Shown here in pieces: positions 15,329 to 38,163 of a DNA stretch of 64,000 nt. The notes beneath the pieces are model-generated. The model was given only the letters and a program-made list of their open reading frames with translations. It searched no databases and was not told the origin of the DNA. This stretch comes from a virus. The DNA is taken from IMG/VR virus record IMGVR_UViG_3300035523_000146, one strand, 5' to 3'. The position numbers and the translations under genes were made by a program. How positions within the stretch are numbered: the first letter of the stretch is position 1; each line of letters begins with the position of its first letter.

Positions 15329-15947
15329 GAGAACCTCCTAAGCAGTTGCCCAGCCTTTGGGGATCATTGTCTGAATAGAAAATACACATTTAATGAACTA
15401 TAAAATATCACTGGAGTGCACAATGTCAACACAGAAACCTCAAGAAAAGTCGTGGAGTTGCAAGTATTGGCGCTAGCGTAACTTGCGTGAGGCCATGCGG
15501 CTTTGTAGTCGCACCTGGCGGCTGCAAATTACGCCTGAACTGAGGTTACCCGCGACTTGGAGAAAGACTCCTCAACGGCGATGCGATGCCATTTTGTCAT
15601 GCGGGCGGGGCTGTATCCTGAATCAAGGTTGGCGCGTTTCGCAAACGCGGCTCGCAGAACTCACCAGCACGCCACGCTGACTACTGGTTCTGTGGCTGCC
15701 GACAGGCTGGTTCGGAGGAGTTCGGCGCCTGGATCTTGGCCGACATTTACAGAGGTCCAACTGGATTTCGGTTTACGGTTTTAGGATTCTTGTTACGGAC
15801 CGATCACGCGGCCGCCGCGATGGCGCTCGATCGACGTAGTCGAGCGCCATCGCAAATTTTCTCTTGGTCTGACCGCTCCAAAGCCGTATAGAGGTGCAGG
15901 TCTGCGCAACGTTTTCTGAGCCGATTTTACCGGCGGGAGATTGCCGC

Positions 15948-16801
15948 GTGCCCGTTGAAGTCAAACCGTTGTTCCGGCCAGATGTGCTGCGCTCGCATCT
16001 CTCTGCGTTCCGCATGCCTGGTCGGCTGGGGAACGGCTCAGCGCTGCGGAACAAGGTCGCGCATTGGGCCGAGCTTGTTTCCTCCGGGCGTGCGGACGCC
16101 TTCAAAGAGCGCGAAATCCTGCCTGACTTCCTGACCGATCTCTTCGGCGGCGTGCTCGGCTGCACAAGCCCGGCCGAGAACGCCGACCGCTACACGCTCT
16201 CTCGGGAGCAGATTTGTTCCTGCTGGCAGTTCTGAAGTCACCGTTGATCTGGTGGCACAACTGGCGCTACCTGCCGCACATGAAAGATGAGGCTCTCTCG
16301 CCAACCGGCGTGAAGATAGAGGCGTTCCCCGTCGCGAAGCCCAGCGCGCAGGCGCGCGCCGCAGCCGAGGAGAACGTCGCGCGGCTGATCGACATCACGA
16401 AGGCGCAGCAGTCCGCCACGCGCGAACTGCTGGACTGGCTGCGCGTCGAACATGAAGTCGCCAAGCCCAGTCTGCGGCTGCAGGCGCCGGCGGAACTGTC
16501 GAGCGATGAGTTCGTCAGCGAGGGGAAGAAGGCGCGCGGCAAGAAATGCCTGATCGCCGCCGGCCTCAAGAGCCTGCGTGACGAGTACACGCGCTTGATT
16601 GTGCCGATGCAGATCTGCGCGGCCGAAGCGCTGGACCTGGAGCGGGCCTTGAGCGCCAGCGTCAATGCTGCCTACGGCCTCACCCCCGCCGATGAAAAGC
16701 TCCTCAGGCAAACCGCCCCGCCGCGGATGCCCATCGGCTCCCAAGCCCCAGCGACGCTGCAGCAATCGGCCGCCAACAGGACATCAGATTTCAGCGCCTG
16801 A
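15948..16801 (+). pseudogene. Internally deleted type IIG (Eco57I-like) restriction-modification gene
   Basis: N-terminal fragment (VKPLFRPDVL...EILPDFL) joined out of frame near 16210 to a typical C-terminal end (LAVLKSPLIWW...AYGLTP); no methyltransferase motifs. Confidence 0.7.
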
Positions 16802-16860
16802 GACTTGAGAGTCGAAATCCATATGTTGCGAAGGGCACGCGGCAACCAGAGGAACCAGCG

Positions 16861-18561
16861 CTACCGCGCAAACTCCAAAAACGGCAGTTCGCCAGTCCGA
16901 CGGTCAGTGCAGGACGCCGCCACCTTCTCATCGATTCCCCACTTTGATGGGTACTTGGGCGTATCAAGGGGCTCCAATGAAGGCCGAAACTTCTGCTTTA
17001 TCCGCGTGCGACCAAACAGCCCAGAAACTTCCGGGTGCCGCACCCTCGCGTACTTGCTAATCTCGCAGAACAGATTCTGACAATCGATGTATTGCAGTGG
17101 CCGCCCCCAAAGCGTCTGGAATTCAAGGCCGCGCTCAGAAAACTCGGATTCCTGGCGTTCGCATACCAGCTTGATGATTTCGGTCTCATTGAGTCCGCCC
17201 AACGAGTCGAAGCACTTGCGGATGCCGTCCCGAGCTCCAGGACCCGGAACGACGAATTCCCTCTCGGAGAAATCTGTTACCGAGCTGTAGTTGATGTCGG
17301 TGACGTATTGATATGCAAGAAAGTCTCCGATCATGGGGTAATCGCGCAGCAACAAGAAAGCCTCAGACATCCTGCGGCAATCTGCTAGCCGCATCGGCAA
17401 CTCATCACGTAGCATTCGCTGGAGAAGAATTAGAAATGAGCGATGCTTCCTTCCGCCATCGGCGTCACGATCTCCCGACGGCATAATGTATGCGGCCGAA
17501 AAAATCCTGCGCCCGGATTCAAGAGCGCTCGTCAAGATTCTGTCGTAGCGTTTGAAATCAAACTCCGCTGCGCTGATCGCCCCCAACTTGCTTTTGATCA
17601 GCCGCCACGTTTCGATCTTATTGAATATCTTGAACAAAAGCACCCTGAACACGACTTCGTTGATGTGCTGGCTTCCTTCATCAATGACGTAACGAATAAG
17701 GAACTGGCTCGCACGATCCGAAGCCCTATAGGCGTTTGTAAACTTGTTGACCGCCAGGATCGGATCTTCGGTCCATGGCGGCGGTGTGCCACGGAGACGC
17801 CGGAAAAAGATCGCTTGTCGTTCCGTGGCAAACCGCCAGAAGGTATCGTACACCAACGTTGTTTTTGCCGGAGCCAGGGAACTGAATCCGTATGGCGCGT
17901 GCGCCCGCTCCGCAGGCGATGCCTCCCGGCAATTTGTTGCGACGCGATTGGCGCCGCCACTGTCAACGGGAGACGCAGCGCGCAAGATCTGCGCAAATGC
18001 ATCCTGTATCGTGTGGTTGTTGTCCACCGAAACGACGAGGTAATTTTTCGCCTCGCGCCGAGCGAGTGCCTCGTATGCCGTTTGGAGCCGGATCCAGAGA
18101 TCCTCTTTTTCTGGTCGCAGTGGCACTCCCCGTTGAATAACGAAGACGGCTGTGGGTTTCAGATCGCCCCACGCTTCGAGTTCCAAGTCGATGAGTTTCC
18201 GCAGGAGCGAAGCATTGGCGCCTCCCACCACGCCGTATACTTCCGTGGACCACCAGAATCTATCCAGGACAACACTGCGGCCTTCAGTCAGCGCTGGGAT
18301 AATGCTGCGCTGGATGGTATCCAGATGCGCGGCCACATGAAGCATCTGCAGGATAGCGGGATCGAATTGCTTTATCCCAAATCTGCCAGGATCATGGTGC
18401 AGATCGTATACGTGCTTTCCGAGAGTTCCTGGATCGCGCCCAGGAAAACTCAGCGCCAAAGAAGCGATGTCGGATCGTGCCAAATAGTCCGAGAACCGCT
18501 TGCACAGCTCCGACTTGCCAACACCGTCCGGACCTTCGAAAACGTAAAGCCGTCCTGTCAC
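16861..18561 (-). CDS. Thymidylate-kinase-like domain fused to a 5-hmdU DNA kinase helical-type (aGPT-pyrophosphorylase clade 1) domain
   Basis: VFEGPDGVGKS P-loop and VLDRFWWS (dTMP kinase); FWRFATERQAIF...PPPWTEDPIL...FTNAYRASDR is the helical-domain signature. Confidence 0.85.
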   Translation of the reverse strand: MTGRLYVFEGPDGVGKSELCKRFSDYLARSDIASLALSFPGRDPGTLGKHVYDLHHDPGRFGIKQFDPAILQMLHVAAHLDTIQRSIIPALTEGRSVVLDRFWWSTEVYGVVGGANASLLRKLIDLELEAWGDLKPTAVFVIQRGVPLRPEKEDLWIRLQTAYEALARREAKNYLVVSVDNNHTIQDAFAQILRAASPVDSGGANRVATNCREASPAERAHAPYGFSSLAPAKTTLVYDTFWRFATERQAIFFRRLRGTPPPWTEDPILAVNKFTNAYRASDRASQFLIRYVIDEGSQHINEVVFRVLLFKIFNKIETWRLIKSKLGAISAAEFDFKRYDRILTSALESGRRIFSAAYIMPSGDRDADGGRKHRSFLILLQRMLRDELPMRLADCRRMSEAFLLLRDYPMIGDFLAYQYVTDINYSSVTDFSEREFVVPGPGARDGIRKCFDSLGGLNETEIIKLVCERQESEFSERGLEFQTLWGRPLQYIDCQNLFCEISKYARVRHPEVSGLFGRTRIKQKFRPSLEPLDTPKYPSKWGIDEKVAASCTDRRTGELPFLEFAR

Positions 18562-19349
18562 GCCGTCGTCTCCTGGGAGCGGAGAATCGCGCGCAGATCT
18601 GTCGCGAAGTCCTGAAGATCCTCTTTACTCCGCCGCCCACGCGCGCCGACAGAAGCGACACATGTAAGCTGCGTCAGCCGAAGTCCCATTCGAGCGGCCA
18701 TGAACTTCCCAAGTCGGCATAGGCCGAGGTAGTTGCCGTATGCGCGTTCGAAGAAGAACTGGGTCGCGTAAAAACCGGTTACGCACAAGCCGTCCTGACC
18801 GACTGGTGCGAAGTTCACCTGCTGAAGACAAGGAAAGCCCAACTGTCGATTATTGCTGTGGTCGCGCGTCGGATCAAAAACCGATGCGATGAGGGCACTA
18901 CGACGATGATTTCCGCTGCGGTACGTGTCTACAATGTGCGTTAGCTGATCGACGGGCTTCAGGACTGAGTCTTCCGGCTGGTATGCTGTGAGACGCCTGA
19001 AGTAGACGCCGTACTTATTCGCCGGGCATTTCTTGATCATCGCCCAGATCCGTCCATACCGTCCCAACACGTGTGCTCCTCCATCGTCCAGCGACGGGTT
19101 CCACAACGAAATCGGAAAAATCGTGTTGGCGACCGTGTGGCACTTAGCTCGCTCGAAACGCTCTAGCTCCTTGTCCAACCGCTCACGGATCGCATCATTT
19201 TCTATGGCGGTACCGTTATCGAAAGCATGGACACGTACAATTAGCGGAGTCAGCTCGTCGATGCCGGGCTCCATCAGCCGCAGAAAGGCCTGTGCCCATG
19301 CCACTGACAAATTCGTGCTTGAGGGAATAAACCAGTCACTCGCCATCAC
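18558..19349 (-). CDS. Divergent thymidylate-synthase-fold protein
   Basis: YFRRL...DQL..IV, SVFDP, GFPCLQQV (catalytic Cys) and YGNY; lacks RSND and the terminal HxY. Confidence 0.7.
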   Translation of the reverse strand: MMASDWFIPSSTNLSVAWAQAFLRLMEPGIDELTPLIVRVHAFDNGTAIENDAIRERLDKELERFERAKCHTVANTIFPISLWNPSLDDGGAHVLGRYGRIWAMIKKCPANKYGVYFRRLTAYQPEDSVLKPVDQLTHIVDTYRSGNHRRSALIASVFDPTRDHSNNRQLGFPCLQQVNFAPVGQDGLCVTGFYATQFFFERAYGNYLGLCRLGKFMAARMGLRLTQLTCVASVGARGRRSKEDLQDFATDLRAILRSQETTA

Positions 19350-20199
19350 TCACCTCTTCCTCAAAGCGGTACACGGCTCGTCCCGCGTAATCCTTGCGTG
19401 ACACGCGAACAAAGCTTGCCCATGGTCCTGCCGCAAGTCGGCCAATCCCAGTCGTAACGGCGCGAAGGACGACGCGCGCGCTATTGCGTTCCACGATCTC
19501 CGTACAACGCCCCTCAAACAGAACATCCGGCGGCGCGCAAACCAGATCGCCCACTTCCAGATCAATTGCTCTGCCGACCCAATTGGTGTCCGCCACAACG
19601 AGGTTATTTCGGCACTCAGCCCCGAGTATTCTGCCTCGCAAATCCAATGGCTGGTTTCTGAGCAGTTCCTCTGCACGCGTGCGGTTGATCAGTCCCAGGC
19701 TGATGCACATATGATTGACCAATGTGCCGAAGCCCACACCGAAGTAAGTAGCGATCACGTAAACGGCTTCGGGACAACACGAACCAGCGGTCAACTTCCT
19801 TACGGCAAAAGCTCTTGAGACCGCCGCTTTCGGCATCAGGAGCTCGCCAGCAAAGCAGTTGGCCACGTACTCATCGGGATCATTCCGGCGTAACGTGCTT
19901 CGTTCTTCCACGAGCTCGTCGAATTGGGCACCGTGCCCAAAGACGTGGTGTCCGAGCTCATGCGCCGCGTTGAATGCACGTCTGCCAGGCGGACGAAGTG
20001 CCGATACCAGCACGATTGGCATCACTCCATTTGGGAAATATATCCCCTCCATGGATGGGAGAGCCTCGAACCGAACGTCCACGCCAACCTTGGCGGCAAG
20101 GTCAAAGACGCAGCCGGGATTGGCGCAGCTCCAACCGTGCTCAGAGCGGAGTCTCAGTGCCTTTGCAATGGCGGCTCGCGCAAACACGCTGCGATTCAC
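19336..20199 (-). CDS. ImmA/IrrE-family metallopeptidase
   Basis: RRAFNAAHELGH (HExxH) and EYVANCFAGELLMP. Confidence 0.92.
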   Translation of the reverse strand: MNRSVFARAAIAKALRLRSEHGWSCANPGCVFDLAAKVGVDVRFEALPSMEGIYFPNGVMPIVLVSALRPPGRRAFNAAHELGHHVFGHGAQFDELVEERSTLRRNDPDEYVANCFAGELLMPKAAVSRAFAVRKLTAGSCCPEAVYVIATYFGVGFGTLVNHMCISLGLINRTRAEELLRNQPLDLRGRILGAECRNNLVVADTNWVGRAIDLEVGDLVCAPPDVLFEGRCTEIVERNSARVVLRAVTTGIGRLAAGPWASFVRVSRKDYAGRAVYRFEEEVSDGE

Positions 20200-20549
20200 T
20201 CTTTCTCCTTCGGCTTGCGCAGCATGCGAAGCGTACTTAGCAGCCGGTCGAGATCCTCGTCCTTCATTCTGCTGAGCTCACGTGCAGCTATGAGGATACG
20301 GTCTTCCACAGATTCCTTTTCGCCCCAGTCCCCTCCGGTGAGCCAATTTACGCTGACCCCGTACATCTCGGCAAATGCTGCAAGTTCCTCGGCACTAACG
20401 GCGCGACGGCCGGCCTCAATCTCCGATACAGATGGACGATGCAAATCCATCTTCTTTGCAGCTTGCCCCTGTGATAAGCCAGCAGCTTCACGCGCAGATC
20501 GCAGACGACTCGCGATCAACTCGCGCTTTTCATGGTCCCGTCCTGGCAC
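20196..20549 (-). CDS. XRE-family HTH transcriptional regulator
   Basis: LRSAREAAGLSQGQAA...VSEIEAGRR; overlaps the IrrE-like gene start. Confidence 0.92.
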   Translation of the reverse strand: MPGRDHEKRELIASRLRSAREAAGLSQGQAAKKMDLHRPSVSEIEAGRRAVSAEELAAFAEMYGVSVNWLTGGDWGEKESVEDRILIAARELSRMKDEDLDRLLSTLRMLRKPKEKE

Positions 20550-20552
20550 ACT

Positions 20553-20828
20553 TCACCTCACAGTCATCAACTGAGCCAGCCGTTCAGCTATCTGTTCGAC
20601 GCGTACTGGCTTGCTTTTCTTGTCAAGACAAAGGTTGTCTTCAGGGATATCGATCCCGAGCTGCGTCCTGAGCTCCACGGTTACCTCCATCCCGTTCAAA
20701 CTGTCAAATTCGAGTAGGTCTGTCAGAGGGCAAGTGGCAGGGCCAATCTCAGATGGTGGCCGGCCCGACATTTCCTGGTAATGACCAATAACCTCAATTA
20801 CCAGAGCAAGTAGCTGCGCGCTCGACAT
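20553..20828 (-). CDS. Acyl carrier protein-like
   Basis: 91 aa from ATG 20828 with AGGAGG RBS; FDSLNGMEV phosphopantetheine-site motif in helical context. Confidence 0.75.
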   Translation of the reverse strand: MSSAQLLALVIEVIGHYQEMSGRPPSEIGPATCPLTDLLEFDSLNGMEVTVELRTQLGIDIPEDNLCLDKKSKPVRVEQIAERLAQLMTVR

Positions 20829-20841
20829 TTTTCTTGACCTC

Positions 20842-20870
20842 CTTACCGGTTGGTAATATATTCTTACCGG
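20842..20870. promoter_or_regulatory. Candidate operator in the divergent promoter: CTTACCGG repeated at 21-bp spacing with an inverted GGTAA between
   Basis: CTTACCGG at 20842-20849 and 20863-20870, GGTAA at 20852-20856, in the about 100-bp AT-rich gap between divergent genes. Confidence 0.45.
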
Positions 20871-20926
20871 CGTGGACGTCAATGAAAAAGTTGAAAAAAT
20901 AACATCGTGTTTCAAATGGAGGGGCT

Positions 20927-21937
20927 ATGTTCCACGCATTTGAGGGCCATACCGCCGAGGAAGTCTATGATGGGATCCTTTCAACATTCCGCACGCCGGG
21001 ACAGATTGGCTTCCAGCCGAGCCGCGCTGGCGACACCCAGGAGTTGCTGCATGCAACAATCTCAATCGCCGATCCTCGTCAACGTTGGTTGGCTTCCCGC
21101 ACACCTGCACTGAACCCGGCTTTCGCCATTGCGGAAGCGATCTGGATCCTGCGCGGTCGAAACGACTCGCGCTTCCTTACATTCTTCAATAGCGAATTGC
21201 CGAAGTTCGCCGGCGTGGGCCCAACATTTTACGGAGCCTACGGGCACCGGCTTCGGCGAAACTTGGGCATTGACCAACTGGAGCGCGCTTTCCACGCGCT
21301 TAAGAACAACCCGGAATCGCGACAGGTAGTACTGCAGATTTGGGACGCCGAGCAGGATTTTCCAGACGAAGCCGGAGCGCCAAAGGCGGAAGACATTCCG
21401 TGTAATCTGCTTTCCATGCTGAAGGTAAGAGACGGTGCCCTGGAGTGGACGCAGGTGATTCGCAGCAACGATGTCTATCGCGGACTTCCGTACAACCTCG
21501 TGCAATTCACCACTCTGCAGGAGGTGATGGCCGGTTGGCTCGGCTTGAAGCTCGGAAGCTACAATCAGCTCAGTGACAGCCTGCACGTTTATGCGCGAGA
21601 CTTGAAGGCAGTTGTCAGTTCGGCGGGTGTTCAAGCGCAGGCGAACGAGGACAACTTGAGTCTTCCGAAGGCGGAATCCGATCGGGTCTTCGCTGCAATG
21701 GAAAAACACGTCGAAACGCTGATCAACAATGAGCGCGGTTCCGCGGCGCCCACCGAGATCGTAAAGAGGCGCGATCTTCCCCAGCCGTACAGAAACATGA
21801 TCTGCGTTCTATCCGCCGAAGCTGCACGGCGAGCCAGATTGGCCACTGTCGCGACCGAGATAATGGCCGAGTGCTCGAATCCGGTCTTTTGCCAATTATT
21901 CGAGCGCTGGTGCAAGCGGTTCAAGAAGGCGGGCTAA
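20927..21937 (+). CDS. Thymidylate synthase / dUMP hydroxymethylase-family protein
   Basis: AYGHRLR, DQL...SRQVVLQIWD, DIPCN (catalytic Cys), RSNDVYRGLPYN, SLHVY. Confidence 0.9.
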   Translation: MFHAFEGHTAEEVYDGILSTFRTPGQIGFQPSRAGDTQELLHATISIADPRQRWLASRTPALNPAFAIAEAIWILRGRNDSRFLTFFNSELPKFAGVGPTFYGAYGHRLRRNLGIDQLERAFHALKNNPESRQVVLQIWDAEQDFPDEAGAPKAEDIPCNLLSMLKVRDGALEWTQVIRSNDVYRGLPYNLVQFTTLQEVMAGWLGLKLGSYNQLSDSLHVYARDLKAVVSSAGVQAQANEDNLSLPKAESDRVFAAMEKHVETLINNERGSAAPTEIVKRRDLPQPYRNMICVLSAEAARRARLATVATEIMAECSNPVFCQLFERWCKRFKKAG

Positions 21938-22086: not shown

Positions 22087-23025
22087 TTATGTGCCGACCT
22101 TTTTCTTTGCAGAGACGTCAAATATTTCGTCGGTCAACATGGATTCGAGCCGATCGTTATTCAGCAATTTCAGGATCAACTCCACATTCTCTTCGGTTGT
22201 TATGATCTTGTCGCCGTCAAACGTCACTGGCCAACCTTGCGCAGTGCATACCAATTTCAGGTTTGCCATGAAATCAGGTTGCTTATAATAGCCATTCTTC
22301 TTAATCATGGCCATCCGACGAAGGAAATTCAACCGCACACCGGTCGCGCTCCGGATCACCTCGACGTCATCGATCAGTCCCGAACTATGAAGCTCCCGCA
22401 AGAGATCATCCCGACTTCTCTCCATACCCGCACGAAAATTCATCGCCGCCTCAAACTTCTTCTTATCCAAGACGAACACCAGACCATCGTATGCAAAGAA
22501 ATCAATCTTCTTCTCCAGCTTGAAGATCTGGTCTTCAGCAACATCCATGAGAATGTGGTCGCGAAAAACGGCGTTAAGGGTCCGTCCCTTCTGCTTCAAC
22601 TTCCAGCCTTCGGGGATCTTATGAACTGCCAGAATGCGTTCGCTCTGCGCTTCCATGGCAATCGCATAAGCCCAGGAGTCGTAAAGTTGGTCCGCTGACG
22701 TTACCGACGGAGCAGCACTGCCCTCGGCGATTTGGTCGTAGATGGCCTGAAGGTCAGTTTCTGGCATCCTAAGGCCTACTGCTTCACCGGTATCAAGTTC
22801 TTCCGAGAGGAACTCATAGGGCTCAACGTGGTTAGCGGATCTTACCGCAGACGACACGATGTCCGAGAGTTTTCGCTGCAGTGCAGCTTCCGTCCGGACT
22901 GCGAGGGCATCATACTTGGCGACACCCGCGCGCATACCGCGTTTGATCACCCACAGGTTCGCGTGCGCGCGTGCAAACGACAAGGCTTGCAGTTTCTTCA
23001 GGCTCTTCGTCAGTGCCGATATCAT
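22087..23025 (-). CDS. kwaB: Kiwa KwaB-like (DUF4868) protein
   Basis: IFKLEKKIDFF...FEAAMNF core typical of DUF4868; coupled downstream of a TM partner gene. Confidence 0.75.
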   Translation of the reverse strand: MISALTKSLKKLQALSFARAHANLWVIKRGMRAGVAKYDALAVRTEAALQRKLSDIVSSAVRSANHVEPYEFLSEELDTGEAVGLRMPETDLQAIYDQIAEGSAAPSVTSADQLYDSWAYAIAMEAQSERILAVHKIPEGWKLKQKGRTLNAVFRDHILMDVAEDQIFKLEKKIDFFAYDGLVFVLDKKKFEAAMNFRAGMERSRDDLLRELHSSGLIDDVEVIRSATGVRLNFLRRMAMIKKNGYYKQPDFMANLKLVCTAQGWPVTFDGDKIITTEENVELILKLLNNDRLESMLTDEIFDVSAKKKVGT

Positions 23026-23576
23026 TGGGCTTTCTCTCCTGTAGGAACGATGTAGAGGAAAGGCGATAACCGCTCCATCTTGTATTCCTTGCCCTGCGCC
23101 AACTCGATTTTCGACAGAAATATGCCTGTCCGCGGCTTGCCGGACTCCTCAAATTCGACTTCATACAGACCCCAGCCGAGCAGCGCAAGAAAAGGGTTAA
23201 GGAATATACTCTGCGTCCTGATAGCAAGAACAAGCAGTATTCCCAGAAACATCAGCAGCGCAGAGATGTCCTGCCACTTGCCGAAATCTACGCTAAAGAA
23301 CGACACTACGTAGGGGATGGAATACGCCGCGAGGTCATTTGACCGCAGGGATACACGTTTCGTCGTAATGAGGAATTGGCCGCGGCAACAACTCATTGCT
23401 GCGAAAAGCAGAACTCCGCTGGCAACGGCGACAGTAAACGCAGAGTAGACGAAGACGCTGTTCTTAAAGCAGTCCTGTTTTTCATCAAAGTCGCGTATCG
23501 CGAAAAGCAACGCGAGCGGCGCATACGCGCTCACCGCGATTGCCGCTGCGAACCCGAGGCGCGGTTTCATAAGCAA
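23022..23576 (-). CDS. kwaA: Kiwa KwaA-like membrane protein
   Basis: Several TM helices; YSIPYVVSF and IFLNPFLALLGWGLYEV; 4-bp overlap with the kwaB-like gene. Confidence 0.7.
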   Translation of the reverse strand: MLMKPRLGFAAAIAVSAYAPLALLFAIRDFDEKQDCFKNSVFVYSAFTVAVASGVLLFAAMSCCRGQFLITTKRVSLRSNDLAAYSIPYVVSFFSVDFGKWQDISALLMFLGILLVLAIRTQSIFLNPFLALLGWGLYEVEFEESGKPRTGIFLSKIELAQGKEYKMERLSPFLYIVPTGEKAQ

Positions 23577-23980: not shown

Positions 23981-24016
23981 ACGTAATGCAAAAACGTAAT
24001 GCAAACGTAATGCAAA
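23981..24016 (+). repeat. Three tandem ACGTAATGCAA repeats, putative integrase arm sites
   Basis: Copies start at 23981, 23994 and 24005, about 25 bp upstream of the tRNA-Leu fragment. Confidence 0.75.
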
Positions 24017-24041
24017 TCAGGCTACTTAATTGGGTACGAGT

Positions 24042-24087
24042 GGGACTTAAAATCCTTTCAGTGTGGGTTCGACTCCCATCCCGGCTA
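24042..24087 (+). tRNA. 3' fragment of tRNA-Leu(TAA) (att scar, not a functional tRNA)
   Basis: GGGA-CTTAAAA-TCC anticodon arm and GTGGG-TTCGACT-CCCAT T-arm; no matching 5' acceptor strand or D-arm. Confidence 0.7.
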
Positions 24088-24257
24088 AATCTTAATCCTG
24101 CGCTATATTCATAGGTGATATTAGGAACAGTCAAGCTCTTTACTCACAGGAGTTTCACATTTGCGCTATCCAGTTCGGAGCCGTCAGATGTTATCCATAT
24201 TTTGTCTATTGCGTGCGCTGTTTCGATTGGTATAACTCGCTATTTGAGGCGTTAACC

Positions 24258-25760
24258 ATGATTTTTGACCGAAAGGATCTATATCGAGTTCCACGCGTAG
24301 CTCCCACTCCGGAGAAGAGCTCCTTTAAGCGGCAATCTCTGCGACCTTACTCCGCATCCGGACGCCCGGGATGGCTTGTTAAGTGGACCAATCCACATGG
24401 AAGACGTTCGACGGCTTCTCTCAGTACGCGCGACGAGACCGAAGCGAAAGCCGTCGCGCTTGACCTCGAACGCCTTCTCAACGACCCGACGTACTGGGAC
24501 ATCAAGGATGGCGATCCCAGATGCGTTCATTTCCATCCCAGAGCACTCGAAATCTTCTGCCGGCGCCCGGCGCGAGCGTGTCCATCGACGGCGGCTGTCT
24601 CTGAGGACGCAATCCAGTTCTTCCGGACGATGCCATCCGATTGGAGCCCTAAGAGCTGGTACATCCCTGTTCCGGAACTCAACGAACTTCGCATCGAGCT
24701 TGCCAACAAGGAACGCATGGTCGCCAGACTTGAGCAGGAAAAAGAAGTGTGGAATCGCGAACGCATGGAACTCCGCAAGCGCCTAAACAAACACTGCACA
24801 GCCACAATGAGCGAGGCGCTTGAAGAATTCGAGAGATACTACCGCAACGGACATGCTCCAGAAACGGTGAGTCAAGTCTTGCGCGTGAATCGTCAGTTGG
24901 CTGAAGCTGTGGGCATGGATACTCTGGCTGGCCTCGTTACCGGCGCCGAGATCAATCAACTTCTGTACAACTACACTAACGCCGGGCGCAAAGTCTGCCA
25001 ACGAACGCGCAGACGGGTAAAGGCGTATCTGTCTACCTTCTGGTCTTGGGCTGTCCGCCAATACGAACTAAACGGAAATCCCATCGCTCACGTCCACGTG
25101 ATCCCTGCTGGCGCGCCTGAGTCAATTGAGGCGGTGAGGAGCTTTCAGGATCTAACGACCATGGTCAGTGCACTTGCTGACCGTCCGTATTGGCAAGCTT
25201 GGGTTGCGGTCGCCACCCTGGCCGGTCCTCGCTGGGGAGAACAGGCGGCCATCAGGATCGCAGACGTGAATCTCAATGATGGCTACATCCGCATTGCCGG
25301 ATCAATCACTGGCCGCGGCACAAAGACAGGAAGACAACGCAACGTTCCGATTGAACGGACCACTCTTATGCCCATCCTTAAGAAATTCATGGCGGACGAG
25401 CCGCATCGAAATGGGCTGCTCTTCCCTTCGATCAGCGCTGGACACGGCGCAACGAAGGACGGGCTCTGGCGGGCACAGACGTGGCACAAGTATTGGTTTG
25501 GCGGCCACAATCCCGACGGAGAATTTGTGCAGGGTATATCACAGGCTTTGCGTGCGAAACGTGATGCGTACTTTTGGGAATATGGACCAAGGGAATGGCG
25601 CCATTGCGCCGGAACCGCCATGGGTCACGCCGGAATGTCGACCCTGCGCATTTCCCAGTGGCTTGGCAATAGCGAAGCGATTTGCCGTCGTCACTACGTC
25701 GCTCCCAGTGGAGCAGCTAGCTGGCCCCTCAAATGGACAGTGAACCCATACATTGAGTAG
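24258..25760 (+). CDS. Tyrosine integrase
   Basis: TLAGPRWGE (R), TKTG (K), PREWRH, WLGNS, RRHY (Y); stop codon overlaps the tRNA-Pro fragment. Confidence 0.9.
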   Translation: MIFDRKDLYRVPRVAPTPEKSSFKRQSLRPYSASGRPGWLVKWTNPHGRRSTASLSTRDETEAKAVALDLERLLNDPTYWDIKDGDPRCVHFHPRALEIFCRRPARACPSTAAVSEDAIQFFRTMPSDWSPKSWYIPVPELNELRIELANKERMVARLEQEKEVWNRERMELRKRLNKHCTATMSEALEEFERYYRNGHAPETVSQVLRVNRQLAEAVGMDTLAGLVTGAEINQLLYNYTNAGRKVCQRTRRRVKAYLSTFWSWAVRQYELNGNPIAHVHVIPAGAPESIEAVRSFQDLTTMVSALADRPYWQAWVAVATLAGPRWGEQAAIRIADVNLNDGYIRIAGSITGRGTKTGRQRNVPIERTTLMPILKKFMADEPHRNGLLFPSISAGHGATKDGLWRAQTWHKYWFGGHNPDGEFVQGISQALRAKRDAYFWEYGPREWRHCAGTAMGHAGMSTLRISQWLGNSEAICRRHYVAPSGAASWPLKWTVNPYIE

Positions 25761-26878: not shown

Positions 26879-29800
26879 ATGAGCAAGCTCGAAGACCTGC
26901 TGCCAAACGCATCCGTGCGCGGAATCCTGCCCGACGCCCTGGTCACGGTTGTGAGCGTGCAATGGTTCGGCTCTGAAGCTCTGGAACTGACTTATAAATC
27001 CCCTGCCGGCAAAGTCGCTAACGAACTGCTGTATCGCCACGATGAACCGCGCGTCCAGCTTGTTGAGCAAGGCCGGCCGTGGAGTTTCGACGGCGACGGC
27101 GCGCTGTTCCGGCTGGTGTCCGAGGCGCAGCGCATTCGGCTGGCGCACCTCTTCGATCCGGTGCTGGCCGTCCACACGTCAATCGTCGATCCGCTGCCGC
27201 ACCAGATTACCGCTGTGTATGAATCCATGCTACCGCGACAGCCGTTACGTTTCCTGCTTGCCGACGATCCTGGAGCCGGCAAAACGATCATGGCCGGGCT
27301 GTTCATTAAGGAACTGGTCGCGCGCGGCGACCTACAGCGTTGCCTCATCGTCTGTCCGGGCAGCTTGGCAGAACAATGGCAAGATGAGCTGTATCGCCGC
27401 TTCCACCTGCCCTTTGAGATTCTGACTACCGACAAGCTCGAAGCTGCGCGCACGGGCAACTGGTTCCTGGAAACGAACCTGGTCATCGCCCGGTTGGACA
27501 AACTGTCGCGCAACGAAGACGTGCAGCAAAAGCTCCAGGCGCCCGACTGTCGCTGGGATCTGGTGGTTTGCGACGAAGCACACAAAATGTCCGCCACCAT
27601 CTTCGGCGGCGAGACGAAGTACACGAAGCGCTACCTGCTTGGCCGTCTGCTATCTTCGCTGACACGGCACTTCTTGCTGATGACTGCGACTCCGCACAAC
27701 GGCAAGGAGGAGGACTTCCAGCTCTTCATGGCGCTTTTGGATGGTGATCGCTTCGAGGGTAAATTCCGCGATGGTGTCCACGTCGCCGACGTCTCCGACA
27801 TGATGCGCCGCATGGTGAAGGAAAGCCTGCTCAAGTTCGACGGCACACCGCTGTTCCCCGAGCGCATCGCGTACACGGTGCCGTATAAGCTCTCGCAGGC
27901 GGAAGCGCACCTTTACAAAGAAGTCACCGATTACGTCCGCGAAGAGTTCAACCGTGCCGAAGCGCTCGAAAACGATAAGCGCGCCGGCACGGTGGGCTTT
28001 GCCCTCACGATCTTGCAGCGCAGGCTGGCGTCATCGCCGGAAGCCATCTACCAGTCGTTGCGCCGGCGGCGGGAGCGCCTCGAAAGCCGGTTACGTGAAC
28101 TCGAAGTGCTTCAGCGTGGCGGTCAGGTTGCACCGGTCCAGGCACCTGGAATTCCGACACTCGACGTGGAAGACGTCGATGATTTAGAAGACGCGCCTGA
28201 CAATGAAGTCGAGGCCGCCGAAGGGGAGGTTCTTGACCAGGCAACAGCGGCGCGATCGATAGCTGAGCTCAAGATGGAAATTGGGACGCTGAAGGAACTG
28301 GAGTCGCTCGCCTTGGCTGTACGCCGCAGCGGCACGGACACCAAGTGGCGCGAACTGGCCAGCTTGCTCAGCGAGATCTTCACGCCAGCGAGCGTGACGC
28401 AGCGTGTGGCCGAGCCCGACGTTCCTTACGGCGCCGGGCCGATTCCGCGCCCCACTCCTTCACCGCGCCAGAAATTGGTCATCTTCACTGAGCACCGGGA
28501 CACGCTGAATTACCTGGATACGCGCATCACGGCGCTGCTGGGGCGGAAACAGGCCGTGGTCATCATCCATGGCGGCATCGGCCGTGAAGACCGGATGAAG
28601 GCCCAGGAATCTTTCAAGCACGACCCCGAAGTGCAGGTGCTTCTGGCCACGGATGCCGCCGGGGAAGGCATCAATCTGCAGCGCGCCCATTTGATGGTAA
28701 ATTACGACTTGCCCTGGAATCCCAACCGGCTGGAACAGCGTTTCGGCCGCATTCACCGTATCGGCCAGACGGAAGTTTGCCACTTGTGGAACCTGGTGGC
28801 CGAAGAAACCCGCGAAGGCGACGTCTACCGGCGGCTGCTGGACAAGCTGGAGCAGGCCCGCCAGGCGCTCGGCGGCCAGGTCTTTGACGTGCTGGGCAAG
28901 CTGCAGTTTGAAGGCAAGCCGCTCCGCGACCTGCTGATCCAAGCGATCCGCTATGGCGATCAGCCGGAGGTCCGCGCTCGACTTACGACGGTGTTGGATC
29001 AGGCACTCGACCGCGATCAGCTACGAAACCTGCTTGAAGAGCATGCGCTGGCCCACGACGCCATGGACGCCAGCCGTGTGCAGCACATCCGCGAAGATAT
29101 GGAGCGCGCGGAAGCCCGACGGCTGCAGCCCCACTACATCGAGTCCTTCTTCCACGAAGCCTTCCAGCGTCTGGGTGGCTCGGCTAAGCAGCGCGAATCT
29201 CGCCGCTACGAGATTACACATGTACCGGCGCCGGTGCGCAACCGCGACCGTCTGATCGGTATCGGTGAGCCGGTCTTGCCGCGTTACGAGCGCATCGCCT
29301 TTGATAAGACGTTAGTCGCTCCGCCGGGGCAGCCGCTGGCGGCGTTCGTCTGCCCAGGGCATCCGCTGCTGGATTCCGTCATCGACCTCACGCTGGAGCG
29401 CCACCGCGATCTGCTCAAGCGCGGCACGGTGCTGGTGGATGAGCGCGATCCGGGCCTTCAACCGCGCGTGCTGTTTTTCCTTGAGCATTCCATTCAGGAC
29501 GCCGGCGTGACGCGCTCCGGCGAGCGCCGCGTCATCTCCAAGCGCATGCTTTACGTTGAGCAAACCGCTGACGGTGCCACGCGCCATCTGCACTACGCGC
29601 CATACCTGGACTACCGGCCGCTGGCCAAAGACGAACCGCAGATCGATGCGCTCTTGTCCAGGCCCGAGTGCGCCTGGATCAGCCGCGCCCTGGAGCAGAA
29701 GGTGCAGGGCTACGCGATCGCGCAGGTGGTGCCCGAGCATCTGAAGGAAGTTCGAGACCGCAAGCTGGTGCTGATCGCCAAGACCGAGGCTGCCGTAAAG

Positions 29801-30460
29801 GATCGGCTAACAAAGGAGATCACCTACTGGGATCACCGTGCCGAGCAGCTCAAGGTCCAGGAGCAGGCCGGTAAGCCCAACGCCAAGCTCAACTCTGGGG
29901 AAGCCCGCAAGCGTGCCGACATTTTGCAGGGGCGTCTGCAAAAGCGATTGGAGGATTTGAAGCTCGAAGCACAGATCTCGCCGCTGCCGCCGGTGGTACT
30001 GGGTGGAATGCTGGTGGTGCCGGCCGGGCTGCTCGCGGCCATGGCCGGCCGTGCGGCGCCGGTGGCAACTACGCCGGCAAACACGCAGGCCAGCGCCGCG
30101 CGGGCCCGAGCAATCGTGATGGACGTCGAGCGCAAGCTGGGCTTCGATCCGACGGACCGGGAAGTTGAGAAGCTGGGCTACGATGTCGAAAGTCGCGTAC
30201 CCGGCACCGGCAAGCTGCGCTTCATCGAAGTCAAAGGCCGGGTCTCCGGCGCGCCGACGATCACGGTTACCCGCAACGAAATCCTGTACTCGCTCAACAA
30301 GCCAGAGGATTTCATTCTGGCCATCGTGGAGTTTACGGATAGCGACAACCACCAAGTTCACTATCTGCGCGAGCCTTTTCAGCGCGAGCCGGATTTCGGT
30401 GTGACCAGCGTGAACTACGACTTTACTGAGTTGATCCAACGCTCCGAGGAACCGAGGTAG
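26879..30460 (+). CDS. SNF2-family helicase with C-terminal DUF3883 nuclease-like domain
   Basis: LLADDPGAGKT, DEAH, QRRLASS, EQRFGRIHRIGQ; GYDVESR...FIEVKGR. Confidence 0.95.
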   Translation: MSKLEDLLPNASVRGILPDALVTVVSVQWFGSEALELTYKSPAGKVANELLYRHDEPRVQLVEQGRPWSFDGDGALFRLVSEAQRIRLAHLFDPVLAVHTSIVDPLPHQITAVYESMLPRQPLRFLLADDPGAGKTIMAGLFIKELVARGDLQRCLIVCPGSLAEQWQDELYRRFHLPFEILTTDKLEAARTGNWFLETNLVIARLDKLSRNEDVQQKLQAPDCRWDLVVCDEAHKMSATIFGGETKYTKRYLLGRLLSSLTRHFLLMTATPHNGKEEDFQLFMALLDGDRFEGKFRDGVHVADVSDMMRRMVKESLLKFDGTPLFPERIAYTVPYKLSQAEAHLYKEVTDYVREEFNRAEALENDKRAGTVGFALTILQRRLASSPEAIYQSLRRRRERLESRLRELEVLQRGGQVAPVQAPGIPTLDVEDVDDLEDAPDNEVEAAEGEVLDQATAARSIAELKMEIGTLKELESLALAVRRSGTDTKWRELASLLSEIFTPASVTQRVAEPDVPYGAGPIPRPTPSPRQKLVIFTEHRDTLNYLDTRITALLGRKQAVVIIHGGIGREDRMKAQESFKHDPEVQVLLATDAAGEGINLQRAHLMVNYDLPWNPNRLEQRFGRIHRIGQTEVCHLWNLVAEETREGDVYRRLLDKLEQARQALGGQVFDVLGKLQFEGKPLRDLLIQAIRYGDQPEVRARLTTVLDQALDRDQLRNLLEEHALAHDAMDASRVQHIREDMERAEARRLQPHYIESFFHEAFQRLGGSAKQRESRRYEITHVPAPVRNRDRLIGIGEPVLPRYERIAFDKTLVAPPGQPLAAFVCPGHPLLDSVIDLTLERHRDLLKRGTVLVDERDPGLQPRVLFFLEHSIQDAGVTRSGERRVISKRMLYVEQTADGATRHLHYAPYLDYRPLAKDEPQIDALLSRPECAWISRALEQKVQGYAIAQVVPEHLKEVRDRKLVLIAKTEAAVKDRLTKEITYWDHRAEQLKVQEQAGKPNAKLNSGEARKRADILQGRLQKRLEDLKLEAQISPLPPVVLGGMLVVPAGLLAAMAGRAAPVATTPANTQASAARARAIVMDVERKLGFDPTDREVEKLGYDVESRVPGTGKLRFIEVKGRVSGAPTITVTRNEILYSLNKPEDFILAIVEFTDSDNHQVHYLREPFQREPDFGVTSVNYDFTELIQRSEEPR

Positions 30461-30490
30461 CCCTCGCGGCTACTGCGAGAGGAAGAAGAT

Positions 30491-32305
30491 ATGGTGATCC
30501 ATGCAATTTGGGTGCGGAATGCCGGCAATCTCGAGAACGTCTTGTTTAACCTGTCTGGCCAGTATCTGTTCAAGTTGTCTTCCGACGCTCGGGTCCTGAC
30601 GATAGAGAGGAACCCGCGCTACATCCCTGGCTTCTGGAAACACAAGAACGTCGCCAGTGTCGCAGCTATCGTTGGGGAAAACGGGGCAGGCAAGACGAAT
30701 ATTCTGGATTGGATATTCTCCACATTACCACGGTCAGATCAGCCTCCGCCTAACAGAATGCACGAGTACTTGGTAGCTGTAGAAAAAGACGGCGCCTCCC
30801 ATGTGTTCTATCAGTTTGCGGGAGAAGGCGTCATCACGATTAACTCGCCAGACGGGGAAGGGCAATGGGAATCCACGGCACTGCACGACGTGGCACGCCC
30901 CAGCTCGCAATTTCCAGAGTTCTTTCATAAGGATGTCAGTTTCATCTACTACTCCAATGATCTGGCACCGCTAATGCGGACGCGTGATTCCGACTTACTA
31001 AAGAGCGGCCCAGAGACGCACAATATCTCAACCGCCTACTGCATGCGCCATGATGCGCTCAGATTGCGGAACGGGCCATCAGGTTCTATTAGCCAGGTCG
31101 AAGCACATGCGACGATGGAAGTTCTCCGCAACATAGAGTTCATCTTGGAAGAAGGGAGCGAGAGGTTTTGCCCCTTCAATTTTCCTAGTTGCCTCTACAT
31201 CGAACCCGAACGGATCCCCACCGAATTTCTTCAACCCAGTCAGCATTACGCCGAGAATGGAAAGCCCGGTTTTGTATTCAGATTGACATTGGCGGCGCTT
31301 GTCAGCCTCTTCAGAGACACCAACCCTCAGAAGGGCGACCCCCCGTTCGGGCGATTGCACGAGTCGCTATCGGGTGATTATTCCTTGGAATCAATGCGGA
31401 ACGAGATCGTGAAGATGGGCCGCCCGTACGGCGCCGTAGGCGAGAAGCGATTGGAGTTCCTCGATTTCGTGGCAAAGCGGGTTCCTGGTGACGTGTTCGC
31501 ATGGAATGGCGAAAGAGCCGAATTCACGACAGATGCGCAAAAGCTATCTGTACTTAGGGAGTTTTTCGGCACGTACGCAGCATCGGTTGCGATCACGCCG
31601 TTCGTTTCATGCCGTTGGCGCCACCGGCTTAGCGGCGGTGAACAGTCAATCCTCACGCTGTTTTCGAGAATCTGGAGCGTGTGCAGAGATAAGCCGGCGC
31701 GCAATATGAGAGTGGGAAAGCACGTCGTCCTCCTCTTAGATGAGGCCGATATTTGCTTCCATCCCGAGTGGCAGAAGCGGCTCTTCGACCTATTGCTTGA
31801 GTTCACGGCAAGAATGGCATTTAGGGATTCCGAAATCCAGATACTGATGACGTCGAACTCGCCTTTCTGCGTTTCGGATATTCCACGAGACAACGTAATA
31901 CTGCTCGAGCGGGACAAGAGTAGTTATGTTTCAAAGGTTGCCGACACTGGGTGTCTTGGTGAGACGTTCGGCGCTAACATCCATTCGCTATTGGCCAAGT
32001 CGTTCTTCATGAAGCAGTCACTTATGGGTGATTTTGCTCGACACCAGATCAGGGATCTGGTTCAGTGGCTGACAGAAGATCAAAATGAAAATGCTGCGGA
32101 GTGGATCAACGAGGAGACCGCATTAGTAGCGATTGATCTGATCGGGGAGCCATTGCTTCGTGAACGAATGCGCGACCTTTACCGTAGACATGCCGGCGAC
32201 ACCGATTCCGAGATCGCTCGTAAAAGGAGACTTGAGAGGCTACGCGCAGAGCTTGCGGAACTTGAGGCAAGAGAGCAAGAGAATGGATCGGAACCGCTAC
32301 AATGA
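30491..32305 (+). CDS. ABC-type AAA ATPase, Septu PtuA-like
   Basis: GENGAGKT, LSGGEQ, LLLDEAD..FHPEWQ, TSNSPF, ETFGANIH.LL...FF. Confidence 0.88.
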   Translation: MVIHAIWVRNAGNLENVLFNLSGQYLFKLSSDARVLTIERNPRYIPGFWKHKNVASVAAIVGENGAGKTNILDWIFSTLPRSDQPPPNRMHEYLVAVEKDGASHVFYQFAGEGVITINSPDGEGQWESTALHDVARPSSQFPEFFHKDVSFIYYSNDLAPLMRTRDSDLLKSGPETHNISTAYCMRHDALRLRNGPSGSISQVEAHATMEVLRNIEFILEEGSERFCPFNFPSCLYIEPERIPTEFLQPSQHYAENGKPGFVFRLTLAALVSLFRDTNPQKGDPPFGRLHESLSGDYSLESMRNEIVKMGRPYGAVGEKRLEFLDFVAKRVPGDVFAWNGERAEFTTDAQKLSVLREFFGTYAASVAITPFVSCRWRHRLSGGEQSILTLFSRIWSVCRDKPARNMRVGKHVVLLLDEADICFHPEWQKRLFDLLLEFTARMAFRDSEIQILMTSNSPFCVSDIPRDNVILLERDKSSYVSKVADTGCLGETFGANIHSLLAKSFFMKQSLMGDFARHQIRDLVQWLTEDQNENAAEWINEETALVAIDLIGEPLLRERMRDLYRRHAGDTDSEIARKRRLERLRAELAELEAREQENGSEPLQ

Positions 32306-33477
32306 TTCATGTACGTCACACCGACCTCGGTCGGATAGCAGAAGAGCACACTTCAAGGTTGCTTGATTGGATAACCGAGAGAATTGACTGCGCCATTATG
32401 CTCATGGTGGACATGCGACCCGAAGCACCACATCCAAGTGGCCTCACACTACAATCCCATTTGCTGCACACGCTCTCGCGCGGTCCCGCGACAGCCCTCT
32501 TACGAAAATGCTATCCAGTGCCAAGCGGGATCGCATCCCAAAAGCTGATAGCGCACGTACTTGAGAACATTCCGCCGCAGCCAAGCTTTGCTAGTAACGC
32601 AGGGGTGATACATACACTACTGCAGAATGTGAGAAATAACCTGAAGGACCTGTTGAGGAGCCGCCCAGATGTCCTCGAGCAATTGGACCATGATCTGGGC
32701 CTGACGTACAAGGGCATGGGTTGGGAAGAAGAGGCCAAGGGCCTCCTGGAGTTTATATTCGACTACGAAGCATGGACCGAGCCCGGGGAATGGGCAACCA
32801 CGACGCTGAAGTGGGGGCCTCAGGACTTGATACGGAGAATTGGCCTACGCACGTGCCCATACTGTAACCGTGCCTACATCTATTCGGTCTCCCGTCGAAA
32901 GGGTAACGTGGAGGTCCGAGCCGACTTGGACCATTTCTTTGACAAAGCGGAACATCCGCTACTGGGATTGTCCTTCTATAACCTCGTCCCGAGTTGTACC
33001 ACGTGCAACTCTAGGCTCAAGGCTCGGACACCGTTCACGCTTGACCAATACATGCATCCGTACGTTGAGGGCTTCGATGATGACGCGGTGTTCAGAGTAG
33101 GCAAGCACGCATCAGCCCTTGATCCTCAACAGTTGCTCGAAGATCCTGAGTCTATAGGTGTGCATATTGAAAATCGGGTTGATGCGGCCAACCCAAAGCG
33201 CGCAAAGATTAATTCGCATATAGAGTTGTTCTGCTTGGAGAAGTTCTACAAAGGACATTGCGACGTGGTGGCGGATGCCATCGTGCGCTATCGCATGTAC
33301 ACGCCGGAACTGGTACGCGCTCTGATCTCGTCCTTCGGAAGAGGAGTATTGACGGAAAAATACGTTCGAAGAGTGTTGTGGGGAAACTACACCGACATCG
33401 AGGACCTGCACCGCCGCCCGCTGGCGAAGCTGACGCGCGACGTACTCAACGATCTCGGATTCACTTGGAAGGATTAG
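32302..33477 (+). CDS. HNH endonuclease, Septu PtuB-like
   Basis: CPYCN, LDHFF.K...P.L.LS.YNLVPSC..CN; 4-bp overlap with the ATPase. Confidence 0.88.
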   Translation: MIHVRHTDLGRIAEEHTSRLLDWITERIDCAIMLMVDMRPEAPHPSGLTLQSHLLHTLSRGPATALLRKCYPVPSGIASQKLIAHVLENIPPQPSFASNAGVIHTLLQNVRNNLKDLLRSRPDVLEQLDHDLGLTYKGMGWEEEAKGLLEFIFDYEAWTEPGEWATTTLKWGPQDLIRRIGLRTCPYCNRAYIYSVSRRKGNVEVRADLDHFFDKAEHPLLGLSFYNLVPSCTTCNSRLKARTPFTLDQYMHPYVEGFDDDAVFRVGKHASALDPQQLLEDPESIGVHIENRVDAANPKRAKINSHIELFCLEKFYKGHCDVVADAIVRYRMYTPELVRALISSFGRGVLTEKYVRRVLWGNYTDIEDLHRRPLAKLTRDVLNDLGFTWKD

Positions 33478-33490
33478 GGGACTGTAGCTG

Positions 33491-33592
33491 ATGGCCAAGA
33501 AGCTCATCGAAATGGCGCTGCCGCTGGAAGCGATCAACAAGCCGTGCCCGCGGGAGAAGACGCAAAACGTCAATGAGGACCGGCGATGTTAA
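33491..33592 (+). pseudogene. Stub duplicate of the DUF1156 methyltransferase 5' end
   Basis: 33495-33559 matches 34992-35056 at 57/65 nt by manual alignment; encodes [17 protein letters not shown]. Confidence 0.85.
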
Positions 33593-37903: not shown

Positions 37904-37927
37904 GGCAAACCATCGGAGGGGTCTTTC

Positions 37928-38101: not shown

Positions 38102-38163
38102 ACGCGTGCCCGTCGGATGCAAAGGATAGTCAGAAGTAGGCAGTTTGTACAAGGAGCCCGGGA

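Follow-up and report, generated by a model that had tools for sequence, protein, structure and literature searches.

A thymidylate kinase-like domain fused to a PF18723 domain in a repressor-controlled cassette of a bacterial defence island: a possible inducible anti-phage system

The 64,000-nucleotide stretch of DNA held as IMG/VR virus record IMGVR_UViG_3300035523_000146 (hereafter, the window) carries on its minus strand a gene for a protein (P0001) in which a thymidylate kinase-like (TMK-like) P-loop domain is fused to a helical domain of family PF18723. This fusion is neither rare nor isolated; it has thousands of homologues and a fixed place in a conserved cassette, which here is located in a bacterial defence island. 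The cassette probably uses phage DNA chemistry against phages. In the explanation we prefer, to which we would give a probability of about 0.45, it is an inducible anti-phage system: TS336, a thymidylate synthase (TS)-fold enzyme of the cassette, would supply 5-hydroxymethyl-dUMP (5-hm-dUMP), and the fusion protein would phosphorylate and then process a hydroxymethyl-pyrimidine, most likely in DNA. We read the cassette in this way because parts of phage hypermodification pathways sit under a repressor/peptidase switch in defence islands.

The fusion protein and its helical domain

The fusion gene and its two domains are placed as follows.

16861..18561, minus: TMK-like kinase::PF18723 fusion (P0001), 566 aa, GTG start (open reading frame [ORF], translation, Pfam, homologues)
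17917..18561, minus: kinase domain, residues 1-215 (PF02223, alignment to Aquifex TMK 2pbr, family conservation)
16861..17886, minus: helical PF18723 domain, residues 226-566 plus stop codon (PF18723, AlphaFold2 [AF2] model, fold, conservation)

An ORF with these ends had been proposed in a preliminary description made from the DNA letters alone. It is present exactly there, on the minus strand, with every motif quoted at the time: GPDGVGKS (residues 10-17), DRF (100-102), FWRFATERQ (241-249), PWTEDPIL (262-269), and FTNAYR (274-279). The gene looks intact, since its length and ends agree with those of more than 100 full-length homologues (548-596 aa, 53-59% identity). In Pfam, Thymidylate_kin (PF02223) matches residues 8-142 (E 7e-13, 49 bits, cut-off 27), and HMUDK_hel (PF18723) matches residues 237-513 (E 1.7e-105 to 4e-106). 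The latter match, on which the preliminary description had staked its assignment of the C-terminal part, scores 352.8 bits against a cut-off of 25 and covers nearly the whole model (positions 3-280 of 281); the tie between this family and phage 5-hydroxymethyldeoxyuridine (5-hmdU) DNA hypermodification also holds. The linker between the domains, of about 35 residues, is poorly conserved. PADLOC 2.0 has no model for the fusion, and the kinase part gives a weak PDC-M51B match only.

The helical domain had been taken for a domain of the hmdU-kinase type, an assignment that has to be given up. PF18723 is the former aGPT-PPlase clade 1, has a helix-hairpin-helix (HhH) glycosylase fold, is related to amino-acid:DNA transferases, and is not a kinase; in gp186 of phage SP10, the P-loop kinase part alone phosphorylates 5-hmdU in DNA (PMC8989533). 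Structure prediction and comparison with phage 5-hmdU DNA kinases had been proposed as a check: the predicted helical fold is that of an HhH glycosylase, and residues 1-235 of the fusion have no match to PF18748 (HMUD1) at E up to 1, a search in which SP10 gp186 gave E 2.8e-23.

This domain is the better conserved half of the fusion, and twelve of its residues are invariant in the fused family (R248, R279, D282, R283, Q418, D422, D493, Q495, N496, C499, E500, and K503). An AF2 model of residues 225-566, built with 95 diverse homologues, reached a predicted local distance difference test (pLDDT) score of 94.5 and a predicted TM-score (pTM) of 0.92, and it confirmed an all-alpha, HhH DNA-glycosylase-like fold. 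The top Foldseek matches in the PDB were crystal structures of PaMx11 gp46 PUGT (probability 0.92). An exhaustive structural search returned QNG1/DUF2419 (Z 10.8) and PUGT (Z 10.3 over 221 residues), followed by Mag1, Ogg, AlkA, and EndoIII (Z 7.8-8.9; with MutY, the range is Z 5.5-8.9). Judged on the predicted model, the closest solved enzyme relative of the domain is PUGT, a 5-phosphomethyl-dU glycinyltransferase. PUGT, QNG1, and the glycosylases were found by fold comparison only; the helical-domain sequence gave nothing significant against PDB chains. Nor did Pfam scans return a match to PF18724 (ADDT), the family to which PAE1 Orf43 matches with E 1.3e-46.

PUGT belongs to clade 2 (now ADDT, PF18724). 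In its active site, Trp146 stacks on the flipped-out base and Cys247 attacks it at C6; Glu243 and Thr244 are the ligands of a metal at O4, and Lys150 is the glycine-binding residue (PMC11472151). Aligning the helical family with ADDT by hhalign (E 0.014, probability 3%, which is statistically weak) gave two colinear blocks. The first pairs I-G-x-F414...Q418 with F-G-P-W146...K150 of PUGT, and the second pairs G-R-P...D493-C-Q495-N496-L-F-C499-E500 with D-R-P...E241-V-E243-T244-V-L-C247. In this weak alignment, C499 falls on Cys247 of PUGT and is flanked by D493 and E500. With moderate confidence, then, the aligned residues suggest that the helical domain keeps a PUGT-like pocket and a cysteine nucleophile, with altered metal and co-substrate ligands.

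A kinase domain unlike housekeeping and phage kinases

The preliminary description had called the N-terminal part a dTMP-kinase domain. It is TMK-like, as the PF02223 match indicates, but the dTMP-kinase equivalog TIGR00041 gives it 40.5 bits, below the cut-off of 83.25, so the family name stands and the specific activity does not. According to the alignment to 2pbr and to conservation across the family, the P-loop, DRF, and LID-like arginines (R144 and R149) are retained. Relative to 2pbr, the thymine-contact Phe is His75 and the corresponding Arg is His79, both at least 90% conserved in the family; H55 and H56 are likewise conserved. R42, which aligns with the arginine of the TMK REP motif, is not conserved in the family. 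In TMK, we take the Phe to stack on thymine, the Arg to bind O4, and the REP arginine to hold the dTMP phosphate. From its sequence, the domain is thus TMK-like, yet neither of the dTMP-kinase equivalog nor of the phage HMUD1 type.

These features bear on whether the protein could be a housekeeping dTMP kinase carrying an inert extra domain. A PF02223 score above the gathering cut-off and the JGI name "thymidylate kinase" would fit such an enzyme. However, the TIGR00041 score is half of the equivalog cut-off, the base- and phosphate-contact residues are altered, the supposedly inert domain is the better conserved half, and the gene shares an island operon with a repressor. Moreover, among five complete genomes of relatives that carry a homologous cassette, four have a separate full-length TMK. 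We therefore rejected this reading, which we regard as extremely improbable. A Dehalococcoidia genome (G005, of locus L024) carries two copies of the fused TMK-like gene (C1:985573-986004 and C1:2052041-2052454) and, at the threshold applied, gave no match to a canonical TMK elsewhere.

A more serious alternative keeps the defence role but places the kinase step in the nucleotide pool. The TMK-like domain would be a modified-dNMP kinase like T4 gp1 that converts 5-hm-dUMP to the diphosphate, with hm-dUTP flooding the pool and dTTP starved; the helical domain would transfer nothing and would be a 5-hydroxymethyluracil (hmU) glycosylase, a DNA binder, or a QNG1-like enzyme acting on a free nucleotide, and defence would come from pool poisoning and abasic sites. 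The kinase domain matches TMK and nothing else, its His-for-Phe and His-for-Arg changes are located where TMK contacts the thymine edge, and entry of hm-dUMP into DNA logically needs a dedicated kinase. The top structural match of the helical model, QNG1/DUF2419, acts on a free nucleotide, with classical glycosylases next, and the MazG (NTP pyrophosphatase) and dCTP-deaminase-like neighbours described below are pool enzymes, recalling the T4 hm-dC pathway. Yet the arginine that holds the dTMP phosphate in TMK is not conserved (R42 here), and the invariant C499 is not a glycosylase-type residue. Taken with the comparative evidence below, pool poisoning seems possible but rather unlikely. The idea in the preliminary description that the fusion may either channel a modified dNMP or phosphorylate modified bases in DNA is a fair guess, and in essence it covers both this alternative and the explanation we prefer.

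Kinase swaps across homologues

The fused architecture is represented by 7,962 scored homologues (53-59% identity for the best 120), which NCBI names "nucleotide kinase domain-containing protein" and the JGI pipelines name "thymidylate kinase"; it occurs in at least 563 species genomes from more than 10 phyla. The helical domain alone accounts for 4,303 cluster representatives. Its kinase partner varies: HMUD1 is fused to it in SP10 and is a separate gene beside it in PAE1, and in Microbacterium phages (Sinatra) the helical gene overlaps a Ploopntkinase3 gene. MazG_C is found fused or adjacent to the helical domain, and triple fusions (helical::MazG::MazG_C) occur.

A helical domain without its own kinase domain is found in particular company. 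Of the 15 loci with a stand-alone helical gene, 14 have MazG_C, compared with 16 of the 65 in which it is fused (Fisher p 1e-6, with no phylogenetic independence among the loci). The TMK domain is dispensed with almost exclusively where MazG_C is present, a pattern that fits a pair in which the kinase activates and the helical domain processes. The constant pairing of the helical domain with a kinase, despite repeated swaps of the kinase family, is the strongest comparative argument for consecutive steps on one substrate; were the two steps separate, as pool poisoning would have it, repeated coupling to unrelated kinases would be hard to explain. In P0199 and P0190, PF18723 is also fused to NADAR plus an N6_N4 DNA methylase (1007 aa) and to an MT-A70 methylase (672 aa), fusions of which we found no mention in the literature searched. 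Fusion to DNA methyltransferases argues for DNA as the substrate, rather than the free nucleotides of the pool model.

A conserved cassette with a putative switch

In the window, the fusion gene is the last of a five-gene minus-strand operon that runs from 20828 down to 16861, with stops and starts that overlap or abut. A sixth gene is divergent from it, and all six are intact and single-copy. The partners of the fusion gene are listed below.

18558..19349, minus: TS263, divergent TS-fold protein, GTGA start/stop overlap with the fusion gene (TIGR03283, AF2)
19336..20199, minus: M78/IrrE-type metallopeptidase, capP-like, HELGH at residues 80-84 (PF06114 E 4e-17; PADLOC capP E 5e-18)
20196..20549, minus: XRE-family helix-turn-helix (HTH) repressor, 117 aa, RstR-like (HTH_3/HTH_31 E about 5e-15)
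20553..20828, minus: ACP-like carrier protein, 91 aa, first gene of the operon (PP-binding 26.1 bits, cut-off 20.8)
20829..20926, between the two strands' genes: putative divergent control region, 98 bp (consensus matches)
20927..21937, plus: TS336, dUMP-hydroxymethylase-like TS-fold enzyme, divergent (comparisons with SP10 gp188, PAE1, and MilA)

The nearest relatives of TS336 are dUMP hydroxymethylases from hypermodifying phages: it is 35% identical to SP10 gp188 (E 5e-39) and 37% identical to the PAE1 enzyme. True thymidylate synthases (E about 1e-13) are more distant from it than the CMP hydroxymethylase MilA (E 3e-25). Its Asn190, of the uracil type, replaces the cytosine-specifying Asp of MilA. 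Cys159, RSND (179-182), and H..Y (220-222) are conserved.

The TS fold of TS263 rests on NCBIfam (TIGR03283, E 1.3e-10) and on a predicted model (pLDDT 94.4) with 396 TS-fold matches in the PDB; by sequence, TS263 has no PDB match, and BLASTP found no similarity between it and TS336. It retains Cys174 (FPCL) and Asn206 (YGN) but neither the Arg-Ser phosphate motif nor the residues on the folate side. The model hints at folate-independent chemistry. A complex prediction of TS263 with the full fusion protein scored 0.00, below the mark, which says nothing either way. The best target-normalised TM-score of the TS263 model was with a flavin-dependent dCMP hydroxylase of phage origin, the short AfhB (9iqu, TMt 0.71), rather than with a folate-dependent TS. 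In the ACP-like protein, the DSL motif with Ser43 is at least 95% conserved among 40 aligned sequences.

The control region contains two overlapping predicted sigma70-like promoters, each with 10 of 12 consensus matches, and two CTTACCGG boxes at 20842 and 20863, 21 bp apart, with a putative regulatory function. The adjacent HTH_3 repressor and HExxH M78 peptidase lie upstream of the genes that they would control, an arrangement kept in 53-59 of the 80 loci described next.

The composition of the cassette was determined in 80 related loci from more than 10 phyla, which were searched with the proteins of the window.

Helical domain: 80/80 loci
Kinase domain (fused): 65/80 loci
M78 peptidase: 59/80 loci
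TS263 (about 263 aa): 58/80 loci
XRE: 53/80 loci
TS336-type gene: 42/80 loci
MazG/MazG_C gene: 30/80 loci
ACP-like: 28/80 loci by tblastn, 39 by ORF search (the 40 aligned sequences include the window's own)

The canonical order is ACP-like, XRE, M78, TS263, and kinase::helical, followed by either a TS336-type or a MazG/MazG_C gene; the last two are nearly mutually exclusive alternatives. About 17 of the 80 loci have a minimal form with the fusion and TS336 only. As TS336 is normally directly downstream of the fusion in relatives, its divergent position in the window is unusual; downstream of the window's fusion gene we found no MazG_C remnant and no second TS336 gene. In the 1.5 kb downstream (15329-16860), there is a strong 15-bp hairpin followed by a T-run (15817-15853), and the ORFs at 15773-16801 match no known family and lack counterparts in the 85 related loci compared.

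Location in a defence island

The surroundings of the cassette were scanned with Pfam across 27 ORFs between 11181 and 46344. A complete Kiwa system adjoins it on the minus strand at 22087-23576, with KwaB (312 aa, PADLOC E 1.4e-96) and KwaA (184 aa, E 2.5e-46). On the plus strand at 24015-25760, a tRNA-Leu (taa) gene (24015-24087) is followed by a 515-aa tyrosine integrase; these likely mark an island boundary between two blocks of defence genes. The second block (26879-46344, plus) is of defence type and looks DISARM-like: it encodes an SNF2 helicase with NOV_C (1193 aa), an AAA_21/AAA_15 ATPase (604 aa), a DUF1156 methylase-type protein (973 aa), and a HEPN_Swt1-DUF499 protein (1115 aa), along with a 1507-aa protein and three smaller proteins that have no Pfam match. 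Neither TIR nor Nmad2 is present among the scanned ORFs. Farther along, an ORF of more than 2,600 aa (56136-63998, plus) runs off the end of the window.

Relatives of the cassette adjoin TIR, metallophosphatase, AbiEii, type I restriction-modification, Hachiman, integrase, and insertion sequence (IS) genes. Their 99 nearest flanking genes include five Nmad2, five dCTP-deaminase-like, five type I methylase, and three TIR genes; these PADLOC and Pfam tallies are descriptive and have no random-region control. The same five host genomes contain no ADDT and no HMUD1 kinase, and the ADDT search succeeds on a phage record.

This context also bears on whether the cassette is a weapon at all. It could instead hypermodify thymidines of the host's or the island's own DNA as protection against nucleases. 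The characterised relatives (SP10, M6, ViI, and PaMx11) all modify the genome that encodes them, one fused copy comes from a viral-classed contig, and an integrase and a tRNA gene are nearby. However, a cassette under an XRE/M78 switch should normally be silent, which is ill-suited to a protective mark, and most loci are chromosomal, beside defence systems and without phage structural genes. The fused form accounts for only one of 12 viral-contig matches, and the lack of ADDT and HMUD1 in the host genomes, by a search validated on a phage record, also speaks against self-marking. We consider it improbable. On the viral-classed contig in question (22.9 kb, from IMG/VR), all six cassette genes are present and follow the canonical order, TS336 lying downstream (L088:3640-8732); the contig may be prophage-borne or a misclassified island.

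A possible mechanism of defence

For the fusion protein, we infer every mechanistic step from the domain identities, fold, conserved residues, cassette, and context computed here; the anti-phage activity of the E. coli system DS-4, the chemistry of the phage kinases and transferases, and the transcription block by phosphorylated hmU come from the work of others. In an uninduced cell, the XRE repressor would shut both divergent promoters. Upon infection or DNA damage, the M78 peptidase would inactivate XRE, by analogy with CapH/CapP and ImmR/ImmA. TS336 would then convert dUMP to 5-hm-dUMP, which would enter newly made DNA, mostly that of the phage. The N-terminal P-loop kinase of the fusion would phosphorylate a hydroxymethyl-pyrimidine, its presumed substrate, and the C-terminal HhH-fold domain would flip the base out; Cys499 would attack C6 and the phosphate would be expelled. 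This would form a reactive exocyclic methylene that is then captured by a nucleophile, leaving the phage with modified or damaged DNA unfit for replication, transcription, or packaging. In vitro, phosphorylation of hmU in template DNA by 5-HMUDK is reported to switch off bacterial transcription (PMC6457204).

DNA adducts could themselves be the weapon. In this variant, the C5 methylene generated by the Cys499 domain would be captured by the phosphopantetheine thiol of the ACP-like protein (on Ser43) or by another cellular nucleophile, and replication of the phage would stall at the resulting bulky adducts or DNA-protein crosslinks. Capture by a thiol is chemically possible for this intermediate, because a beta-mercaptoethanol adduct was obtained with a clade 2 enzyme (Lee et al. 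2021). We think the variant a long shot; if true, it would be an immune effector chemistry not described before.

Several points weigh against defence through a modified base in DNA as we propose it. The TMK family is known to act on free nucleotides, not DNA. The hmU made by TS336 would enter host DNA too, so abortive infection or some selectivity would be needed. The preferred scheme assigns no role to TS263 or to the ACP-like protein. The profile alignment that links the helical domain to ADDT is statistically weak, and the PUGT ligands for the metal and the co-substrate are not kept (Q and N replace E243 and T244, and Q replaces K150). Clade 1 may not be a transferase, since the clade 1 protein M6 gp55 is dispensable in vitro (PMC8989533). 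Finally, the protection conferred by DS-4 may stem from its TIR/Nmad2 part, which the window cassette lacks.

Phages hypermodify thymidine to escape bacterial nucleases. The wide distribution of the cassette suggests that bacteria have put the same enzymes (a hydroxymethylase, a base kinase, and a PPlase-type domain) to inducible use as a weapon or a signal. Working out its biochemistry would also give clade 1 aGPT-PPlase domains, those of phages included, a function, and enzymes that write defined chemistry onto DNA bases are of interest as tools.

Comparison with known systems

Parts of this picture are already known: the architecture is catalogued in Pfam and NCBI, an analogous phage fusion has been published, and a related bacterial system has been validated. 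New with respect to the literature searched are the specific cassette (a TMK-type fusion, a second TS fold, an ACP, and XRE/M78, with no TIR or Nmad2), the kinase-swap pattern, and a structural tie between clade 1 and PUGT that includes an apparently retained cysteine. Our literature search returned no description of an XRE/M78-TS263-fusion cassette or of its chemistry.

Bacterial Tmk (TIGR00041) shares the P-loop, DRF, LID arginines, and, by sequence, the overall fold with the window kinase. Unlike Tmk, the latter has His75 and His79, lacks a conserved REP arginine, and is an extra copy beside the housekeeping gene. As for the switch, CapH/CapP, ImmR/ImmA, and DdrO/IrrE also have overlapping genes for an XRE HTH protein and an M78 peptidase at the head of a defence operon, a similarity with the window pair that is at the domain level only.

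The ADDT enzymes (PF18724) PaMx11 gp46 PUGT, M6 gp51, and ViI gp247 have the same fold as the predicted helical domain and act on 5-phosphomethyl-dU in DNA, downstream of a kinase; in the weak profile alignment, Cys247 and Trp146 of PUGT pair with C499 and F414. In contrast, the window domain is about 10% identical to them and does not match PF18724, and no clade 1 protein is known to be a transferase.

The closest phage counterpart is SP10 gp186, which is listed as a domain fusion of gp186N (kinase) and gp186C (aG/PT-PPlase1) (PMC5889632). It has the same layout, an N-terminal P-loop kinase and a C-terminal PF18723 domain, in 637 aa versus 566 aa here. The gene for SP10 gp188 dUMP hydroxymethylase adjoins gp186, and the minimal bacterial pair of fusion and TS336 mirrors this SP10 pair. 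SP10 has no ADDT, according to our search and to Table 3 of PMC5889632; its clade 1 domain is therefore its only PPlase-type candidate. However, the SP10 kinase is PF18748 HMUD1 and that of the window is PF02223 TMK-like, and the helical domains are about 25% identical. SP10 is also a lytic phage that modifies its own genome, whereas the window copy is chromosomal and in a defence island, apparently under repressor control.

DefensePredictor (DeWeirdt, Mahoney & Laub, Science 2026) lists aGPT-Pplase, MazG, MazG-C, dUTPase, and Nmad among predicted, unvalidated systems (Fig. 6F, PMC13092281). In 30 of our 80 related loci, MazG/MazG_C takes the place of TS336; the window copy is of the TS336 type, without MazG_C. 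From the same work, E. coli DS-4 ("NTTI"), the nearest known system to the window cassette, is a validated and replicated anti-phage system composed of a thymidylate synthase (361 aa), an "adenylate kinase" (185 aa), a PF18723 protein (340 aa), a TIR protein, and Nmad2; its authors note that 5-hydroxymethyluracil kinase and thymidylate synthase domains are newly implicated in defence and offer no mechanism (PMC13092281). Likened by components and not by sequences, DS-4 and the window cassette both bring together a TS-like enzyme, a nucleotide kinase, and a PF18723 protein at one locus. They differ in that DS-4 encodes the kinase and the PF18723 protein as separate genes and adds TIR and Nmad2, while the window cassette has the XRE/M78 switch, a second TS-fold protein, and an ACP-like protein. 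TIR and Nmad2 genes nevertheless recur beside relatives of the window cassette. With so large a family, a two-gene core, and a validated cousin in DS-4, a single biochemical study could explain many loci.

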